Part shown: positions 11,349 through 59,735 of the stretch, in pieces
How positions within the stretch are numbered: the stretch's first letter is position 1
Layout of the letters: every line of letters starts with the position of its first letter
DNA from: Candidatus Zapsychrus exili
GTDB lineage: Bacteria; Omnitrophota; Gorgyraeia; Zapsychrales; Zapsychraceae
NCBI GenBank assembly: GCA_030765585.1
Contig: JAVCCJ010000034.1
Span: 1 to 60,723, forward strand
Direction: 5' to 3'
Length of the DNA: 60,723 nt
The notes under the pieces: generated by a model
The model's input: the letters and a program-made list of their open reading frames with translations, nothing else
Databases searched by the model: none
Told to the model about the DNA's origin: nothing
Translations under genes and position numbers: made by a program

Positions 11349-11381
11349 GGACCATTCTTGTTTAAATTTTCAGAATGACCC

Positions 11382-11398
11382 TGATTACACTGATTAAA
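11382..11398. repeat. 9-mer tandem half-repeat TGATTACAC-TGATTAAA
   Basis: 16/17 identical to 28271-28287. Confidence 0.45.
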
Positions 11399-11413
11399 TA
11401 GGCACTTTAGCGC

Positions 11414-12343
11414 CTATTTAAAATCGCCTAAGAATCTGACTTCGTGTTCTAACTCTAGTCCAAATTTGTTTTTTACGATGTAGGCCATTTTGTTTGATAG
11501 GTCAAATACATCTTGAGGCAGACAAGTTTGATTGGATTTTACAATAATGTTGGCATGCTTATTAAAAACAGATGCTCCGCCAACTTTTAAATCTTTAGCA
11601 CCAGCTTGATCTAAATACCATCCTGCAGCACGACGATCTTCACCAGCTTCTTTTGGCTCAATGTTCTTAAATATGCTCCCTGCGCACGGCGTAACTTCTG
11701 GGCAAGGATGCTTTTCCCATCTAACAGTCAGAAATTCTTTTCTCTCATCTAACAATTTATTATTATCAGATAATTTAAGCGAGAATTGTACTGATAAAAC
11801 TACATCTTCCGATTTCTTTAAAATTGAATCTCTGTATTTAAAACCCAGGTCTTGATGTTCAATATGACTCTTAATACCTTCCTTTGATACAATCTCCACG
11901 CTTGATACTGAATCAGATATTTGTCTTCCAAATGCACCTGCATTTCCAACAACTGCACCACCTACAGTTCCAGGTATACCTGATGCAAAATTAATACCCT
12001 CTAACCCTTGCTCCGCTGCAAAAGACACTACATCATCTAGCTTTGCACTAGCCGAAACAAATATATCATCTCCTACGCGCTCAAAAATAGGTTCATTTGA
12101 TGCAAAACGTACAACATAGCAATCAAGTCCTTTGTCAGACACTATTATGTTAGATCCTTCTCCTACAACAATAAAGGGGAGAGAGTCTGCTGCAAGTTGT
12201 CTTATAACTTCTTGGATTTGCTCTGGTGTTTTACAATCAAAGAGCGTGGGGCAAGGTCCACCTAATTTAAATGTAGTAAAATCACAAAGTCGTGGATTAT
12301 CGAAAATTTCAACGCCAAGTTTTTTTAATTTAAGTACGTCCAA
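11414..12343 (-). CDS. murB: UDP-N-acetylenolpyruvoylglucosamine reductase
   Basis: TTFKLGGP, GEGSNII, GIPGTVGGAVVGNAGAFG, AGSIFKN, KHANIIV, LEHEV. Confidence 0.93.
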   Translation of the reverse strand: MDVLKLKKLGVEIFDNPRLCDFTTFKLGGPCPTLFDCKTPEQIQEVIRQLAADSLPFIVVGEGSNIIVSDKGLDCYVVRFASNEPIFERVGDDIFVSASAKLDDVVSFAAEQGLEGINFASGIPGTVGGAVVGNAGAFGRQISDSVSSVEIVSKEGIKSHIEHQDLGFKYRDSILKKSEDVVLSVQFSLKLSDNNKLLDERKEFLTVRWEKHPCPEVTPCAGSIFKNIEPKEAGEDRRAAGWYLDQAGAKDLKVGGASVFNKHANIIVKSNQTCLPQDVFDLSNKMAYIVKNKFGLELEHEVRFLGDFK

Positions 12344-12359
12344 TTAAATCCTCGTTTTG

Positions 12360-12595
12360 ACAAAAGGTGCCAGTGCAGATTCAAGATGCTAGTGCAACAG
12401 TTTAAAAAATTTTATCACTACTACCCTAACTTCTGTCATCCCTGCGAAGGCAGGGATCCCCGCTTTTAAATAACTGTTTCTCGCAACATCAAGAGATTCC
12501 TGCCTTCGCAGGAATGACAACGGGAGAAACAGGGATGGCAAACAAAGAACAAAAGGTGCCAGGCACTTGTCGATTTATTTTAGGTGCCAGGCACC
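12360..12595. repeat. Composite repeat locus: GGTGCCAGGCACC-family copies around a dRS3-like dyad
   Basis: ACAAAAGGTGCCAG at 12360-12373 and 12549-12562; palindrome GGTGCC-A-GGCACC 12583-12595; dyad TGTCATCCCTGCGAAGGCAGGGATC 12434-12458 and GAGATTCCTGCCTTCGCAGGAATGACA 12493-12519. Confidence 0.8.
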
Positions 12596-14501: not shown

Positions 14502-15713
14502 ATGAACACAAAAAAACAAAAAACACAAGAAGTTAAGATTGGTAACGTCAAGGTAGGTGGAAACAACCCAGTCGTAATCCAATCGATGACAAATACCGAT
14601 ACAGCAGATGTAAGCAAAACAACTGCACAAATTATTGAGCTTATTAAGGCTGGATCAGAGATAGTAAGGATAACTATCAATGACTCTGCCGCCTGCCAAG
14701 CTGTACCAAAAATAATAAACAACATAAGAAAAAAAGGCTACAGCACTCCTGTAGTTGGAGACTTTCATTACAATGGACATATTCTTCTAAACAAATTCCC
14801 AATACTTGCACACGCCCTAGATAAGTATCGAATCAATCCAGGTAATGTGGGTGGGAAAAATGCTCATGACAAAAACTTTGAAAAATTTATTAAGATAGCA
14901 ATAAAAACAAAAAAACCTATTCGTATTGGAGTTAACGGTGGCTCATTAGACAAAAATCTTTTTGAAGAATTAAAAGAAAAGAACAGTAGACTAAAGCGAA
15001 CGAAAACAGAAAAAGAAGTATGGCGAGCGGCACTTGTCGAAAGCGCAATAAGAAGTGCAAAACAAGCAATCAATTTAGGTCTTCCTAAAAACAAAATAAT
15101 ACTCAGCGTTAAAGCATCAGAGCTTCAAGATTTAGTTGCAATAAACAGGTCTCTGTCTAAACTTTGTGACCATCCAATTCACGTAGGACTAACTGAAGCA
15201 GGAAGCGATTTAGAAGGAATATCTTCTTCGGCTGCTGCTTTAGGAATTTTACTTAACGAAGGAATAGGCGACACTATCAGAGTATCACTTACCCCGCAAC
15301 CTAAAGTAAGCAGGGCTCGTGAAGTAGAGGTATGCAAAGCAATTGTTCAATCTTTAGGGCTTCGCCACTTTGAGCCAAAAGTAACAAGTTGTCCTGGCTG
15401 CGGAAGAACGGATGGAGAATATTTTCAGATGCTTGCAGACGATATTAAAAAGCACATAAAAAAGAATGTCTCTCGCTGGCGCAAAAAATATCCTGGAATA
15501 GAGAAAATAAGAATTGCTGTAATGGGTTGCATTGTTAATGGTCCAGGAGAGAGCAAACATGCAGATATTGGAATTAGCTTGCCAGGAAAAAGCGAAACCC
15601 CACAAGCACTTGTTTTTGTTAAAGAAAAATTGATTGCTAAATTAAAAGGTGGGAAAATAAAAGAAAAATTTATAAAAATACTCGAAGACTTTATCTGCCA
15701 GTTAAACAAGTAA
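14502..15713 (+). CDS. ispG: (E)-4-hydroxy-3-methylbut-2-enyl-diphosphate synthase
   Basis: IQSMTNT, GDFHYN, RINPGN, RIGVNGGSL, GIGDTIRVSL, SCPGCGR, MGCIVNGPGE. Confidence 0.95.
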   Translation: MNTKKQKTQEVKIGNVKVGGNNPVVIQSMTNTDTADVSKTTAQIIELIKAGSEIVRITINDSAACQAVPKIINNIRKKGYSTPVVGDFHYNGHILLNKFPILAHALDKYRINPGNVGGKNAHDKNFEKFIKIAIKTKKPIRIGVNGGSLDKNLFEELKEKNSRLKRTKTEKEVWRAALVESAIRSAKQAINLGLPKNKIILSVKASELQDLVAINRSLSKLCDHPIHVGLTEAGSDLEGISSSAAALGILLNEGIGDTIRVSLTPQPKVSRAREVEVCKAIVQSLGLRHFEPKVTSCPGCGRTDGEYFQMLADDIKKHIKKNVSRWRKKYPGIEKIRIAVMGCIVNGPGESKHADIGISLPGKSETPQALVFVKEKLIAKLKGGKIKEKFIKILEDFICQLNK

Positions 15714-15718
15714 ACTTC

Positions 15719-15778
15719 GTAGGGGCGGGATTCATCCCACTTTTGTCATTGCGAGAAGCACAAGCGACACGGCAATCT
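15719..15778. repeat. Composite: GTAG-type REP half plus GTCATTGCGAG-family half
   Basis: GTAGGGGCGGGATTCATCCC 15719-15738; TGTCATTGCGAG...GGCAATCT 15744-15778. Confidence 0.65.
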
Positions 15779-15815: not shown

Positions 15816-16430
15816 ATGAAAAATTTCAAATATATCCTGCATATCTTTTTAATATTATTAATTTTTCCTAAAACAGCTTATTGCTGCATTGATTCAGGAG
15901 CTGGTTTTGCAACAGAGGCACTTTTAACTGATTCAGAAATAGAATACGATTTTTCTGATATTGAGGAAAAAGTTAATACAACAAAAATAAAACACCCCTT
16001 TGGTGGCAGCAAAGACGGCTTTGCCTATGCTTCTAATTTTAACAATAAAGTTGTTGTAATCATTGGTGAAGATGTAATGTTGAAGCCACTTGAGGAATTT
16101 TCAATGGAAAAGTTTGACATTAAGTCTAAGCTAGTCTCAGGATTTAATATAAGAATTCAAATCCCTTATGAGTATAAGAGAGACGAGTCCTTTATGACAA
16201 AGATATCCACGTCTGTTGATTATAAAACATTTGATTTCTCAAAGGCAATGGAAACAGAGCTATTGTGGCTAAAAGGACAAGGTATAATTAAAAACATTTC
16301 AGACGAAGATTTAAAAGATATTACAGCTCTTACAAAACGGGGTCGAGCAGGAGAAAGTAATCGTATAGTTTACGATGAGGGAAAGTGGCTACAAGGAAAT
16401 TCCTGTGCCACACACCATAACCCGAACTAA
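15816..16430 (+). CDS. Hypothetical exported protein, C-terminus probably truncated by a repeat
   Basis: RBS GGAGG, signal-peptide-like N-terminus; final residues (NSCATHHNPN) read through the 24-bp repeat that starts at 16397. Confidence 0.6.
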   Translation: MKNFKYILHIFLILLIFPKTAYCCIDSGAGFATEALLTDSEIEYDFSDIEEKVNTTKIKHPFGGSKDGFAYASNFNNKVVVIIGEDVMLKPLEEFSMEKFDIKSKLVSGFNIRIQIPYEYKRDESFMTKISTSVDYKTFDFSKAMETELLWLKGQGIIKNISDEDLKDITALTKRGRAGESNRIVYDEGKWLQGNSCATHHNPN

Positions 16431-16452
16431 TTAAGGTTACGGTATGTGTCCC
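16397..16452. repeat. Left copy of bipartite direct repeat flanking the GMP synthase gene
   Basis: AAATTCCTGTGCCACACACCATAA 16397-16420 identical to 17462-17485; GTATGTGTCCC 16442-16452 identical to 17540-17550. Confidence 0.85.
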
Positions 16453-16483
16453 CAAATTGTTAAAACAAAGAAAGGATTTTATC

Positions 16484-17452
16484 ATGCCAGACATCAAAGA
16501 GATCACAGTGGGCGAGCTGAACACAAAAGATTTTATTGACCAAAAAGTAAAAGAAATATCACAGGCAGTCGGCGACGGAGAGGCTATAAACGCCTTATCC
16601 GGCGGAGTGGATTCTTCAGCTGTTACGATGCTGGGGCACAAGGCCCTGGGCAGTCGTCTTAAAACATATTTTGTTGATAATGGAATAATGAGAGAAGGCG
16701 AGCCGCAGAAAATTGTAGATCTGTTTAAAGAGCTAGGCGTTGTTGTTAAGATAGTTGATGCCAAAGATAAATTTTTTAAAGCACTAGCCGGCATTACTGA
16801 TCCAGAAGAAAAACGAGAAGCCATTACCCAGGCCTTTTATAAAGATGTTTTCGGAAAGCTTGTCAGCGAAAGCGGGGCAAAATATCTTTTGCAGGGGACT
16901 ATTTTAACTGATGTGGACGAAACCGTCGCAGGAATAAAAAGGCAGCACAATGTCTTTGAGCAATTAGGAATTGACCCAGAGAAGACATTTGGCTATAAGA
17001 TCCTTGAACCGTTGATCCAGTTGCGCAAAGATGGAGTAAGAAAAGCAGCGCAAGCTCTTGGATTACCAAAATGTTTATTTGCGCGTATGCCTTTTCCAGG
17101 TCCGGCATTGGCAGCAAGGGTAATAGGGGATGTAACGCCAGAAAAAATAGCCACTGTCCGCATTGCAACAAGTATTCTTGAAGAAGAGCTGGCACAATCA
17201 GAGGCGTTTCAACATATGGCTATCTTGCATCAGGATAAAGTCACTGGCATGCGCGATAATAAAAGGGATTTTGGTCTGCAAATCGAAATAAGGAGCTGGG
17301 ATAGCATTGACGCCAGAGAGGCAAAGCCAACAAGGCTGCCTTATGAGGTTTTAGAAAAGCTGGCAAGCAGGATGGTTTCTGAGGTTCCTGGGGTTGTGAG
17401 TGTAACATATAATATCGCGACCAAACCACCATCAACAATGGAAGTGGTGTAA
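16484..17452 (+). CDS. guaA: GMP synthase ATP-pyrophosphatase subunit (split, subunit-B type, no glutaminase domain)
   Basis: ALSGGVDSS PP-loop, G.TDPEEKR, LLQGTI..DV.E, IKRQHNV, PFPGPALAAR, V.YNIATKPPSTME; ATG 16484 after AAAGGA. Confidence 0.8.
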   Translation: MPDIKEITVGELNTKDFIDQKVKEISQAVGDGEAINALSGGVDSSAVTMLGHKALGSRLKTYFVDNGIMREGEPQKIVDLFKELGVVVKIVDAKDKFFKALAGITDPEEKREAITQAFYKDVFGKLVSESGAKYLLQGTILTDVDETVAGIKRQHNVFEQLGIDPEKTFGYKILEPLIQLRKDGVRKAAQALGLPKCLFARMPFPGPALAARVIGDVTPEKIATVRIATSILEEELAQSEAFQHMAILHQDKVTGMRDNKRDFGLQIEIRSWDSIDAREAKPTRLPYEVLEKLASRMVSEVPGVVSVTYNIATKPPSTMEVV

Positions 17453-17461
17453 GGGATATAT

Positions 17462-17550
17462 AAATTCCTGTGCCACACACCATAAGGGGTTTAAAAGGCT
17501 GGATCCCCGCATTCGCGAGGATGACAGTATAAGGTCCAAGTATGTGTCCC
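17462..17550. repeat. Right copy of bipartite direct repeat, carrying an inserted dRS3-like half
   Basis: 24-mer 17462-17485, GGATCCCCGCATTCGCGAGGATGACAG 17501-17527, 11-mer 17540-17550. Confidence 0.85.
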
Positions 17551-17581
17551 AGAACTGATGGCTTATGAGAACTGAAAACTT

Positions 17582-18478
17582 ATGAAAAAAACAACGATTA
17601 TAGTAATCTTTTTATGTTTTGTGTTATGGCTATTCATTAAACCAAGCAAACCTTCGTACATTAAAGTTATTGGTCAAGTTGTAGATTTTGATTCTAATGA
17701 GCCTATATCGGATGCTAATGTAAAAATATTTCGTTTTTTTAATACCGGCAATTTATGGAGTTTTTTAAAATATAGCTATTTACGTGAAGAAAAAATTGCC
17801 ACCACAAATTCTTTGGGGCAATTTAATTTTAACAAAATAATAAAAGTTTCAAAAATAGGGAATAATATTAGGAGTGGTGACATTGAAATAACAAAGAAAG
17901 GGTATATTTCTTTTTATTATCAGATATTAGACCCTGCACCTATTCCATCTGAGTTTCAAATACGACTTAAAAAACAATACATGGGTTTTAAATTACCTCA
18001 AGGGCTTATACGCTACAAAATACCTACGCGCTCTGACAAAAAATATATTAACTTTCCGAACAATAAAGTTAGCAATGAAAAAGCCACAGCTGATTTAATT
18101 CTTGATTTTTATGAAGTTACTACAAACATTATTCCAGAAACATCTCAACGTCTGGGATCTTATAGAAGCTTATCCGGAACTTCTATTATTTTAAAAAGAC
18201 TTCAAGTCCAAGAGAATGGAGGCATTGCTGCTATTCCGATTCAAGAAGGAGGTCGCTTAGTTAATAGTTTTGAAGAATTGGCTAGCTGTTCTGAGCTTGA
18301 ATATAAAGAATATGTTGAATATCCTCCTCCGTCTGTTTATTGCATTAGAACAAAAGATGGTAACCATTATGCTAAAATTTACTTAGAAAACAACGGACGG
18401 CTATGTTGGATTTATCAGCCAGATAGTTCTACTGATGTAGAATCAGAATTAACAAGTCTAAAAAGATGGTTAAAATAA
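17582..18478 (+). CDS. Hypothetical membrane-anchored/exported protein with carboxypeptidase-regulatory-like beta domain
   Basis: N-terminal hydrophobic helix, GQVVDFDSNEPISDANV, ATTNSLGQFNF; AT-rich. Confidence 0.6.
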   Translation: MKKTTIIVIFLCFVLWLFIKPSKPSYIKVIGQVVDFDSNEPISDANVKIFRFFNTGNLWSFLKYSYLREEKIATTNSLGQFNFNKIIKVSKIGNNIRSGDIEITKKGYISFYYQILDPAPIPSEFQIRLKKQYMGFKLPQGLIRYKIPTRSDKKYINFPNNKVSNEKATADLILDFYEVTTNIIPETSQRLGSYRSLSGTSIILKRLQVQENGGIAAIPIQEGGRLVNSFEELASCSELEYKEYVEYPPPSVYCIRTKDGNHYAKIYLENNGRLCWIYQPDSSTDVESELTSLKRWLK

Positions 18479-18505: not shown

Positions 18506-18550
18506 AAAAGGAGCCAAGCTCCGTGCTTAGCACGGAGCTTGGCTCCTTTT
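18506..18550. terminator. Perfect 21-bp inverted repeat, probable bidirectional terminator
   Basis: AAAAGGAGCCAAGCTCCGTGC-TTA-GCACGGAGCTTGGCTCCTTTT between convergent genes. Confidence 0.8.
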
Positions 18551-18564
18551 TTCGTAACTTAAAC

Positions 18565-19368
18565 TTAGAGCTTTTCTGTTCTTGCGACCTTCCTATTTTC
18601 AAACACAAGATATTCTTTGTAACCCGCTTCACGGGCGGCGGCGACTGCCTTATCAAAATCCATACCAACTTGTTCTGGTGTGTGCGCATCAGATCCAAAA
18701 ACAATAGGTACACCTTCGTTGCAATAAATTTTCAATTCAGGAAGGGAAGGATAGATTTCACCTATAGGCTTGCGAAGTCCAGAACTATTTATCTCAATTG
18801 CAACTCCACATTCTTTAAACACACGAGCCGTAGCATTAACCTCGCCACTTAAATCTTTTGTAGCACGATCGCCAAACTTCTTTAAAAGATCAACGTGTGC
18901 CATTATATCAAACATACCTGTCTCTGCAGATTTGCGCAGCAGCTTATGATAAGCAAAGTAAATACTATTAATATCTTGTTTATCCCATTTAGGACGCTCA
19001 TCTGGATTATCAAAACCCCAAGACTCTATAAAGTGAACAGATCCTAAAATATAATCGAAAGAATAAAGAGCAAGAAGCTCTTTTGTTTTTTCTTCGTAAT
19101 CTGGCATATAGTCAGCTTCGATTCCAATCTTAATGGAGATCTTATCTTTGTATTCTTCCTTTAAATCGCTTATCATTTTATAATAATCAAGTAACTTATC
19201 TATACCCATGGTAACGCTTGGATCTACATGAGATAGGAAGGGGGCATGGTCAGAGAATCCAACCTCTTTTAATCCTAAAGAAATTGCACGTTCTACATAA
19301 TCTTTTGGTTCTCCTGTTGCGTGTCCGCAAAGAAAAGTATGCATATGATAGTCATAAATAGGAATCAT
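18565..19368 (-). CDS. hisK: Histidinol-phosphatase, PHP family (HisJ/HisK type)
   Basis: DYHMHTFLCGHA, FSDHAP, IGIEAD, GSVH, AHVDL, EINSSG, FGSDAH; start moved to ATG 19368. Confidence 0.8.
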   Translation of the reverse strand: MIPIYDYHMHTFLCGHATGEPKDYVERAISLGLKEVGFSDHAPFLSHVDPSVTMGIDKLLDYYKMISDLKEEYKDKISIKIGIEADYMPDYEEKTKELLALYSFDYILGSVHFIESWGFDNPDERPKWDKQDINSIYFAYHKLLRKSAETGMFDIMAHVDLLKKFGDRATKDLSGEVNATARVFKECGVAIEINSSGLRKPIGEIYPSLPELKIYCNEGVPIVFGSDAHTPEQVGMDFDKAVAAAREAGYKEYLVFENRKVARTEKL

Positions 19369-19514
19369 GATTGACATTATAACATAAAAGAAAAAGAGAA
19401 GGACTCCTTTTCTTTTAAAATCCAAAATCTCAAATCCAAAAATAATGATATTCTTAAAAGTAAAGAGACAAGCGAGCCGCTACCTTTTTAAAAAAAGGAA
19501 AGCATTGGCTTTCC

Positions 19515-28270: not shown

Positions 28271-28462
28271 TGATTACAGTGATTAAAGAAAACGCTGGCA
28301 ATGATGAGAGAAAATGATGACAATGATTAAGAAACACTGTCATTCCTGCGGCTTGCCCTTAGAAGCCTTGGCGAAGTAGGGAGGCAGGAATCTCATAACT
28401 GTATAAGACAAGTGAAAATAATAAGATTGCCACGGCTTGCTATCGCAAGCCTCGCAATGACA
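28271..28462. repeat. Composite repeat locus upstream of argC
   Basis: 9-mer tandem 28271-28287; CTGTCATTCCTGC 28337-28349 ... GGCAGGAATCTC 28383-28394 with a 33-nt insert; AGATTGCCAC...CTCGCAATGACA 28424-28462. Confidence 0.75.
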
Positions 28463-32829: not shown

Positions 32830-33744
32830 ATGAAGAAAGATCTACTCACAATAGAAGACTTAACAAAAGACGATATACTAAAGATCTTAAAATCAACAGA
32901 AGAACTTAAAAAAGATAAATTTAAGTGCAACAATCTTTTAGATGGCAAATCTATTGCTCTAGTTTTTCAAAAATCATCAAACCGAACTCGCGTATCTTTT
33001 GAAGTAGGGATAAGTCAATTAGGCGGAAACTGTGTTTATCTAGGTCCGAAAGAAATCAAGCTTGGAGTTCGAGAATCTGTATCTGATGCAGCAAATACAC
33101 TTGCTCGTTATGTTGATGGGATTGTGGCTCGAACATACAAGCATCAAGACATTATCGATTTGGCAAAATATGCCAATATACCTATTATAAATGGCTAGTC
33201 TGATCTTTATCATCCATGTCAGGGGCTAACTGATATCTTTTCCGTAAAGGAAAAGTTTGGCACCTTAGATGGAATAACCGTATCTTATGTAGGCGATGGA
33301 AACAATGTATGCACTTCTTTATTGTTTGTATGTGCAAAGCTTGGAGTTAATGTCAATATTGCGACACCTGACGCATATCGAATAGACTCAACTATTTTAG
33401 ATAAAGCTAACTCTTACGCCAAACAATCTGGTGCAAAAATAAACACAGGAAACGACCCAAAAGAATTAGTTAAAGGGGTAGATGTGATTTACGCAGATGT
33501 CTGGGTAAGTATGGGACAAGAGGATGAGACAGCGAAACGACTAAAAGATTTCGAAGATTTCCAAATAAATAAAAATCTAGCCGATCTTGCTAATAAAGAT
33601 TTTGTTTTCATGCATTGCCTTCCTGCGCATCGAGGGCAAGAAGTAACAGGCGAAGTTATTGACGGACCTAATTCAATTGTGTTTGATCAGGCTGAAAATC
33701 GACTTCATACTCAAAAAGCTATACTTAAATTTCTATTTCAATAG
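32830..33744 (+). pseudogene. argF: Ornithine carbamoyltransferase interrupted by an in-frame TAG (33196-33198)
   Basis: KSSNRTRVSFE, then ING-TAG-SDLYHPCQ, YVGDGNNV, W.SMG, HCLP in one frame; real lesion vs assembly error unresolved. Confidence 0.85.
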
Positions 33745-58491: not shown

Positions 58492-59735
58492 ATGCCAAAA
58501 TTTTCTTATGTTGTAAAAGACAGAGAAGGTCACACTAAAAAAAATGTTGTCGAAGAAATTAGCCAGTCTATTCTTGTTTCAAAACTGCAAGCGCAAGAAT
58601 ATTTTATAATAAGCGTAAAAGAAATTAGCATGCCAATACCTCTTGCCAAAAAAAGACAACAAAAGAAAAAGAAAAAACAGTTCTCTCATAAAAAAGTTAA
58701 ACTAGAAGATTTACTTACTTTTTCACGCCAACTTGCAACAATGCTTGAATCTGGAGTAAATTTGGTACGAAGCTTAACTGTTATTCAGACACAAATACAA
58801 AGTGAACAGCTTTCAAAAATAATAAAACAAATACGAAACGATGTTGAGCAAGGTCTGTCTTTGAGTCCAGCACTTGCAAAACATCCGAAAGTTTTTAATC
58901 AATTTTGGGTAAGTTTAGTTGAAGTAGGAGAGGCCTCAGGAACTATGTCTACCGTTTTAAATAAACTCTCTTTTTACCTTGAACAACAAGCATCCTTTAG
59001 ATCAACAATTACATCTGGAATAATATATCCTTTAGTTTTATTGGCGTATCAGTTGGTGCCATTACATTTTTTGCTCTTTTTGTTGGCCCAAGATTTCAAT
59101 CCATCTTTCAGTCAATGGGGGCAGAACTACCTGCTATAACGACTATACTGCTCGCAACATTTGCATTTATAAAGAAAAACTTTCTATTGCTAGTTGGAGC
59201 AATTATCATAGCAGTGCAATTGTTTAAAAAGTATATAAAAACATACGTCGGAAGAATGAATTTCGAAAACTTTCTTTTTAATACTCCTACAATAGGTGAA
59301 ATATTCAAACTTATTGTGGTAGAAAGATTTACATCTCAAATGGCTATATTAATTGATGCTGGTGTTCCTATTTTATACGCACTTGATATATCAGAAAAGC
59401 TTGTTGACAATATAACTTGTGCTCAGATAATCAACGACATAAAGGAAGGTGTTAAAAAAGGTTCTCTTCTTGTAGATCAAATGCAAGAAAGCGAATTTTT
59501 TCCTCCCATGGCAATACAAATGATTATGGTAGGCGAAGAAACAGGAGAGCTTAGCAAAATGCTTAAGCACGTTGCAAACTATTACCAAGAAAATGTAGAA
59601 ACCTTTATGAAACGTTTTGCAACTATTATTGAACCTTTTATGCTTGTCTTTATGGGAGGTATAATAGGAACCATCGTTCTGGCAATGTTCTTGCCAATGT
59701 TTAACCTATCTCAGCTTGGTGGAGGTATGGGGTAA
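58492..59735 (+). pseudogene. pilC: PilC/GspF inner-membrane platform protein with a 1-nt frameshift near 59041
   Basis: FSRQLATMLESG...GEASG in the first frame; GEETGEL...IIEP in the second; adding one base at 59041-59043 restores IYPLVL-GVSVGAITFFALFVGPRF. Confidence 0.85.

Follow-up and report, generated by a model that had tools for sequence, protein, structure and literature searches.

Copies of a hairpin-forming repeat flank a GMP synthase subunit B gene in a variable slot of Candidatus Zapsychrus exili

The contig JAVCCJ010000034.1 of Candidatus Zapsychrus exili (phylum Omnitrophota; assembly GCA_030765585.1) carries a stand-alone gene for the ATP-pyrophosphatase subunit of GMP synthase (subunit B) that is bracketed by a bipartite direct repeat. 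The window analyzed here is that whole contig of 60,723 nt. An earlier note on this DNA had read the arrangement as a single-gene cassette moved by a recombination system. The bipartite repeat consists instead of two copies of a hairpin-forming intergenic repeat of approximately 59 nt, of the kind known as REP (repetitive extragenic palindromic) elements or Neisseria mosaic repeats. The gene lies in a hypervariable slot between ispG and a PHP-domain gene, and we consider the chances about even that a repeat-associated rearrangement put it there, with the two element copies as both joints.

A hairpin element on both sides of the gene

Two exact copies of the 24-mer AAATTCCTGTGCCACACACCATAA stand in the window, at 16397-16420 and 17462-17485. 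Allowing up to three mismatches revealed no others there, and shuffled sequences gave an expectation of 0. The 11-mer GTATGTGTCCC recurs exactly at 16442 and 17540, leaving spacers of 21 and 54 nt between the two parts of the repeat. The left copy (16397..16456) thus consists of the 24-mer, a 21-nt middle, and the 11-mer (16442-16452). Its arms (16409-16422 and 16434-16448) form a predicted 15-bp stem when the minus strand is read as RNA (−26.4 kcal/mol, z −3.9). The left copy therefore has the short imperfect palindrome and stable hairpin that characterize REP elements and REPINs. In the right copy (17462..17554; 24-mer at 17462-17485, 11-mer at 17540-17550), the middle has been replaced and just the outer 8 bp of the stem are left. 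A dRS3-like hairpin belonging to window repeat families D2 and D7 is nested there (17493..17533), and pieces similar to it were found in three other loci (L008, L060, and L062).

The same metagenomes contain a third copy of the element on another contig. It is 81% identical over exactly 16398-16456, with different flanks, and its depth agrees with that of the organism (4.3 versus 4.1 to 5.2 in X1; 3.8 versus 2.3 to 3.6 in X2). The orientation of the third copy is reversed, and a reverse-strand ATG, possibly a gene start, lies 15 nt away. Stops occur in all three frames within the 30 nt upstream of it, so it is noncoding, and the possibility that it is the 3′ end of a paralogue was rejected on the same grounds. 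At their ends, the two flanking copies agree in 35/35 positions; the third copy shows 11 mismatches. When the salt-lake run contigs were searched with only one half of the element, whichever half was used, the third copy did not come up; its 24-mer must therefore differ from the other two. On this evidence, the element is a discrete unit found at dispersed sites, and the copies on either side of the gene are more closely related to each other than to the third. With regard to features of miniature inverted-repeat transposable elements, the ends belong to one long imperfect hairpin, and no shared duplication is visible at the flanks of the three copies.

Both flanking copies are present in contigs from three other assemblers (ENA k141, Logan, and JGI; L001-L003), which are 100% identical to the window over 1.6 to 3.0 kb. 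A single Logan unitig (16077-17713) also spans both copies. These assemblies probably rest on reads of the same sample. An assembly artefact or duplication, which the earlier note had named as a possible source of the 24-mer pair, was rejected because the three other assemblies agree and because duplication in assembly cannot account for a repeat of 24 nt. The repeats and spacers that the note had described were exact.

An exact scan of 185,579 species genomes and 241 million metagenome records for the 20-mer core TTCCTGTGCCACACACCATA gave 0 hits; both collections evidently lack the window's own genome. The pattern GGGACAC...GTGTCCC of another REP family had 0 matches in the window and 1 in 94 loci, and so gave no link between the element and that family. 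At other loci of the subunit B gene, a flanking direct repeat above chance was seen in 0/67 cases (the longest was 13 nt, and the null reaches 12 nt). Neither an Rfam family nor an intrinsic terminator was detected at the repeats.

The placement of the copies could also be explained if the 24-mer and 11-mer formed a shared cis-regulatory element, acting as operator, leader, or terminator for the subunit B gene and the downstream open reading frame (ORF) 17582. Both copies are on the coding strand, just after a stop codon and 87 and 120 nt before a start codon, in keeping with a regulatory role. However, the spacing of the two boxes is unequal, there is neither a T-run terminator nor an Rfam match, and the hairpin is far stronger on the noncoding strand. 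The third copy has the opposite orientation and lies near the reverse-strand ATG, and nothing similar lies upstream of the gene in other loci. We regard a regulatory function as very improbable.

Subunit B and its base composition

The gene between the repeats (16484..17452, plus strand) encodes an intact protein of 322 amino acids. In such ATP-pyrophosphatase units, XMP is adenylated and then aminated to GMP. The protein matched PF00958 (GMP_synt_C) in Pfam at 1.9e-19, together with PP-loop families. Against TIGR00884 (guaA_Cterm, NCBIfam) it scored 301 bits, below the curated cutoff of 338.75, and for this reason members of the family carry the NCBI labels "ExsB family" or "ATP-binding protein." The top solved structure was PH1347 of P. 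horikoshii (2dpl; E 8e-79, residues 16-320 onto 5-306), followed by subunit B of Methanocaldococcus jannaschii (6jp9; E 2e-71); both aligned end to end. Bacterial two-domain GMP synthetases scored below these archaeal structures. An SGGxDS PP-loop (SGGVDSS), the GMP_synt_C dimerization domain, and full-length similarity place the protein among the GMP synthase B subunits, and the C-terminal KPPSTME is retained as well.

Thousands of homologues of 319 to 335 amino acids with 70 to 82% identity were found in Omnitrophota metagenome-assembled genomes and metagenomes. Nearly all sampled Omnitrophota encode the subunit B gene, which is separate in every case and has no fixed neighborhood. The window protein has all the invariant columns of a 28-member family alignment. 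Together, these features indicate that the gene is in all likelihood an ordinary, functional, strongly constrained housekeeping-type subunit B of a two-subunit GMP synthase. Its protein sits on a long private branch with no close donor (terminal branch of 0.16 versus a median of 0.08), which fits a deep lineage whose best IspG relative is 65% identical. Phage and plasmid collections yielded ordinary full-length guaA at 39 to 41% identity and nothing else, and among the RNA runs searched for the subunit B gene, none holding it was found.

The earlier note had stressed that the subunit stands alone, with no glutaminase partner nearby. A Pfam scan of 23 contig ORFs found no partner; the other ORFs were named solely through synteny with relatives' Pfam tables or from N-terminal sequence. 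Likewise, no partner was seen next to the gene in 77 other loci, whose neighbors were clustered but not all annotated. The observation therefore held, while its treatment as an anomaly did not. Two-subunit GMP synthetases are typical of many archaea, whereas bacterial enzymes are described as two-domain proteins; the activity of the ATP-pyrophosphatase unit does not depend on the glutaminase unit, and in vitro it can draw on external ammonia (PMC10526850). Because the unit works without its glutaminase, an unlinked subunit B is not anomalous.

The gene stands out in composition, as the earlier note had noticed from spot counts. Its GC content is 0.440 and its GC content at third codon positions (GC3) is 0.393. 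Mean GC3 for the other 55 ORFs on the contig is 0.256 (standard deviation, 0.028; range, 0.20 to 0.33, with a maximum of 0.325), and the gene lies 4.9 standard deviations above them. For comparison with the family, 80 metagenome loci of the gene were gathered by family alignment, 57 of which had enough flanking genes. The GC3 of the gene exceeded that of the median neighbor in 45/57 loci, with a mean excess of +0.063 (Wilcoxon p 3.6e-7), and it tracked host GC3 across loci with a slope of 1.03 (r 0.86). The excess in the window (+0.138) is about 1 standard deviation above the family norm and is equalled or exceeded in 16% of loci. The GC3 excess is therefore mostly a property of the family and not a mark of recent import. 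The GC excess was rejected as proof of recent transfer because the gene is GC3-richer than its neighbors in 45 of these 57 other loci. The protein identity of 70 to 82% holds across hosts of 39 to 69% GC (loci L007 and L010-L089).

The archaeal-type split GMP synthase of Omnitrophota thus has a subunit B that is very conserved, moves about the genome, and is systematically GC3-richer than its neighbors. More generally, a gene of outlying base composition between direct repeats is not necessarily a recent import.

A variable slot and its proposed joints

The subunit B gene lies between two genes whose order is conserved. The left border is ispG (14502..15713, plus strand), with Omnitrophota IspG proteins as best homologues (up to 65% identity). 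The right border is a gene for a PHP-domain phosphoesterase (18565..19425, minus strand; PF02811 at 7e-29). Five loci of four relatives (L008, L009, and L095-L097; IspG 62 to 65% identical) keep the ispH-ispG synteny and have the PHP gene in the same position and orientation in 5/5 cases. The backbone shared by the five loci reads (MurB)-PduO-(MoaE-ThiS)-Fer2-ispH followed by ispG-slot-PHP(-)-folE-...-fabG-acpP-fabF.

The content of the slot differs from lineage to lineage. It holds an RNase_T gene in L008 (795 nt), an 85-amino-acid ORF in L009 (254 nt), and DUF5674, a small ORF, a Redoxin gene, and a Glyoxalase gene in L095-L097 (approximately 1.6 to 1.7 kb). In the window, it measures 2.85 kb and holds a truncated ORF (ORF 15816), the subunit B gene, and ORF 17582. 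From genome to genome, unrelated whole genes thus occupy the space between one and the same pair of conserved genes, which is the pattern that defines minimal mobile elements. The subunit B gene was in 0/5 of the relatives' slots, so its position in the window is derived. The same gene order in relatives lacking the repeats, which the earlier note had named as evidence against acquisition, was not found in these five loci. Across 77 loci, the gene had essentially no conserved neighbor, and the largest cluster of neighbor proteins had 5 members.

The left copy of the element coincides with the end of a gene. ORF 15816 (15816..16430, plus strand) encodes 204 amino acids with a signal peptide and belongs to a Heavy_Cys_CGP-like family; the match to TIGR04292 is partial and subthreshold (53 bits; cutoff of 200), and PF27854 is listed for it as precomputed for L001. 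In exhaustive phmmer searches, nearly all alignments stopped at residues 186 to 198, around residue 193 of 204. Codon 194 is where the element starts, and the final 11 codons and the stop are repeat derived. Homologues extend 19 to 61 residues beyond the residue-193 column, and this tail has a conserved Cys motif and ends in LLxL(I/V). A search of all frames of 16380-17640 and of the rest of the contig turned up no remnant of the missing tail. Because the homology ends at the left copy and the tail is absent, the left copy lies exactly at a joint between DNA that was not contiguous, and the truncation of the upstream ORF described in the earlier note was borne out.

These results are consistent with a rearrangement in which copies of a small recombinogenic hairpin element formed both joints of the segment that brought the gene in. 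The likely route would be recombination between element copies, in which either a segment with one element copy was inserted in Campbell fashion or imported DNA recombined at these repeats. That event would also have removed the 3′ end of ORF 15816, and a second event would have replaced the loop of the right copy by the nested dRS3-like hairpin. No dedicated cassette machinery would be needed. What remains of the cassette-like acquisition proposed earlier is the repeat pair, the truncation joint, and the lineage-specific position; the cassette system and the use of GC content as a sign of import do not.

The same picture could arise if the element had been copied or gene converted into two neighboring spacers, leaving the gene between them by coincidence, with a separate deletion of the ORF 15816 tail. 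Hairpin repeats of several families crowd the spacers of this contig and are commonly nested, and a copy of the element exists at an unrelated site. The lack of flanking repeats at the 67 other loci of the gene and the family-wide GC3 excess are also as expected from local spread. However, the sole two copies in 60.7 kb occupy consecutive spacers around a gene that is absent from the relatives' slots. The left copy falls, to the base, where the homology of ORF 15816 ends, with nothing of the missing tail after it, and a recent hop should have copied the middle of the element too. Unrelated local spread therefore seems unlikely to us, though it is the main alternative.

Several observations weigh against the copies having been the joints of an incoming segment. 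Two independent hops of the element into neighboring spacers plus one deletion would give the same picture. The GC3 excess does not count as evidence of import, and the protein, on its long private branch, lacks a close donor. In the Logan contigs of three salt-lake runs, which have a depth of 2 to 5x and drop rare variants, no empty-site, skipping, or circle joints appeared. The excised circles or empty sites that the earlier note had suggested seeking in reads were thus not seen, nor was a donor or an alternative junction. The element is known from three copies. The middles of the two flanking copies are unrelated, at 21 nt versus 13 nt after removal of the nested hairpin, and the model therefore needs a second event in which a nested insertion replaced the loop. 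Finally, the 24-mer read in the frame of ORF 15816 gives GNSCATHH, which MAFFT aligned with the Cys motif of the family, so that part of the repeat might be native coding DNA. Since the third copy is noncoding, we take this alignment as chance or exaptation.

If the rearrangement took place at the repeats, as we favor, the locus is a tidy example of small hairpin repeats at a rearrangement joint in a little-known phylum, where one gene is cut short by the repeats and takes its new stop codon from them.

The closest homologues of ORF 15816 (43% and 38% identity; L090 517-1269 and L091-L094, e.g., L091 6001-6693) have a PNP_UDP_1 gene on one side and IF-2B (MtnA-like) and Aldolase_II genes on the other, and gene ends either abut the next start or overlap it by one base. 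This layout looks like a methylthioadenosine-salvage operon, and the role of the family there may not fit the label of a Cys-rich surface protein. As these two closest homologues sit in other operons, no empty-site arrangement is available from them. On the other side of the subunit B gene, ORF 17582 (17582..18478, plus strand; 298 amino acids) is AT rich, with a GC3 of 0.21 and an N-terminal hydrophobic segment. It had no Pfam or NCBIfam match, and its sole hit among 5.8 billion proteins was itself.

The earlier note had placed the subunit B gene in a run of three genes, each separated by repeats. Repeats do separate them, but this is not specific, since the other two junctions have different repeat families. 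A GTAG-headed hairpin and a GTCATTGCGAG-type hairpin, read directly and unrelated to the 24-mer element, occupy 15719..15778. A perfect 22-bp palindrome (inverted repeat I15) lies at 18506..18550, between convergent genes, and is terminator-like on both strands. Across the contig, a perfect stem of at least 9 bp occurs in 11/29 spacers of at least 40 nt, versus 2% of length-matched coding segments. The pattern ATYCC-N10-GGRAT, the same as that of Neisseria dRS3, occurs 5 times in the window, versus 0.09 expected. Sites with the pattern ATTCC(C)-N8-(G)GGAAT lie at 12438, 12496, 19562, 19617, and 20255. A dRS3-like copy directly follows ispG in the closest relative (L008 11216-11322), and another at 28339-28395 encloses a 33-nt insert. 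After a leading AA, the 24-mer itself reads ATTCCTG (16399-16405 and 17464-17470), the left arm of the dRS3-like family. This heptamer may be a half-site scar at the left end of the element, with a post hoc chance estimate of about 3e-4.

Elsewhere in the window, a stretch of 1.2 kb (11349-12574) has no ORF of at least 90 amino acids and contains a 14-bp perfect inverted repeat formed from dRS3-like units (12441-12512). The ornithine carbamoyltransferase gene argF (32830-33744) has an in-frame TAG at 33196-33198, in a frame that otherwise reads ING-x-SDLYHPCQ; we take the affected position to be a conserved Leu. The reading frame stays open downstream, and the arg operon around the gene is intact. 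At this TAG in run X1, two Logan unitigs end or overlap, each one letter off the window. The TAG may be a polymorphism or a low-coverage error. Similarly, a T2SSF (PilC-like) gene is present as two overlapping ORFs (58492-59139 and 59115-59735), which may reflect a frameshift or a sequencing error.

Comparison with known systems

The protein itself resembles archaeal two-subunit GMP synthetases in being a stand-alone subunit of approximately 310 to 320 amino acids with a PP-loop, a dimerization domain, and a KPPxT(I/M)E C terminus. It differs in that Omnitrophota are a bacterial phylum and in having a 5-residue insertion after the HNV motif.

Genes bounded by short, partly palindromic repeats are known from integron cassettes (attC sites) and from the pdif modules of Acinetobacter plasmids. 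The arrangement here is similar in that a single gene without a recombinase of its own lies between short, partly palindromic repeats. It differs in that the adjacent genes are bounded by other repeats and the cargo is a housekeeping gene, not an accessory one. An integron attC site was rejected, as GTTRRRY/RYYYAAC is not at the required positions in either copy and no attC-like imperfect palindrome is shared. A Xer/dif (pdif) site was rejected because only CCATAA resembles the end of a XerC arm, while its complementary TTACGG is 16 nt off, not 6; the arm TTATGNNAA is absent from the element sequence. No IntI integrase or attI was found in the contig, and no recombinase was found among its ORFs (23 by Pfam, the others by synteny).

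A true mobile cassette would require that the copies be att-, attC-, or pdif-like sites for a trans-acting, hairpin-specific recombinase encoded elsewhere. In keeping with this idea, identical direct repeats bound a single intact gene within a hypervariable slot, one end of the element is a dRS3-type arm, and the gene family lacks a conserved neighborhood in 77 loci. Moreover, dRS3 is the integration target of a phage recombinase in Neisseria (PMC3898611). However, no integrase or transposase is among the 23 Pfam-scanned ORFs, and the others, named by synteny or N-terminal sequence, look housekeeping. The element has neither the GTTRRRY and RYYYAAC boxes nor an 11-6-11 XerC/D layout, and the other two slot genes are bounded by different repeats. 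The 0/67 other loci with a flanking repeat above chance, the lack of skipping or circular joints in the three salt-lake runs, and the failure of the 20-mer core to hit any of the scanned genomes or metagenome records argue in the same direction. We consider a mobile cassette improbable, and the recombination system proposed in the earlier note found no support in the contig. Similarly, there is only a slim chance that the element is the site of a trans-acting, hairpin- or dRS3-specific Omnitrophota enzyme that moves single genes into and out of hypervariable slots, with the subunit B gene, which lacks a fixed neighborhood throughout the phylum, as one cargo. Such a cassette system would have no linked integrase and would be comparable to pdif modules. 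If the element were a recombination site for single-gene modules, it would represent a new cassette mechanism, which we judge unlikely on present evidence.

REP elements, bacterial interspersed mosaic elements (BIMEs), and REPINs are mobilized by RAYT transposases and occur as tens to hundreds of dispersed copies. Like them, the flanking element is a short imperfect palindrome that is extragenic or overlaps gene ends, is dispersed, and shows mosaic nesting. Unlike them, it has no GTAG head, and three copies were seen.

The closest known parallels are Neisseria dRS3 mosaics, dRS3-bracketed genes, and minimal mobile elements. As in the Neisseria mosaic elements (dRS3 and RS), the spacers here contain nested short hairpin repeats that belong to several families, and the nested repeat fits the dRS3 pattern ATTCC(C)-N8-(G)GGAAT. 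For pilC1 of Neisseria, the identical dRS3 repeats on either side have been put forward as the site of its integration or deletion (Schoen et al. 2009, PMC3898611), and the subunit B gene likewise has identical small repeats on both sides. The phylum is different, however, and the flanking element is not dRS3, since just its first 7 nt after AA are arm-like. In the Omnitrophota case, three copies of the element were seen, and a dRS3-specific recombinase or phage is not known.

As presented in PMC3898611, minimal mobile elements (Saunders and Snyder 2002) were defined among strains of naturally transformable species, with homologous recombination in the flanking genes. Measured against that account, the ispG-PHP slot is similar in holding different whole genes in each lineage. 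It differs in that the comparison here is across distant lineages (IspG 62 to 65%) and concerns gene content. Two features known from Neisseria, dRS3-like repeats and slots similar to minimal mobile elements, recur in Omnitrophota, a phylum in which they have hardly been described.

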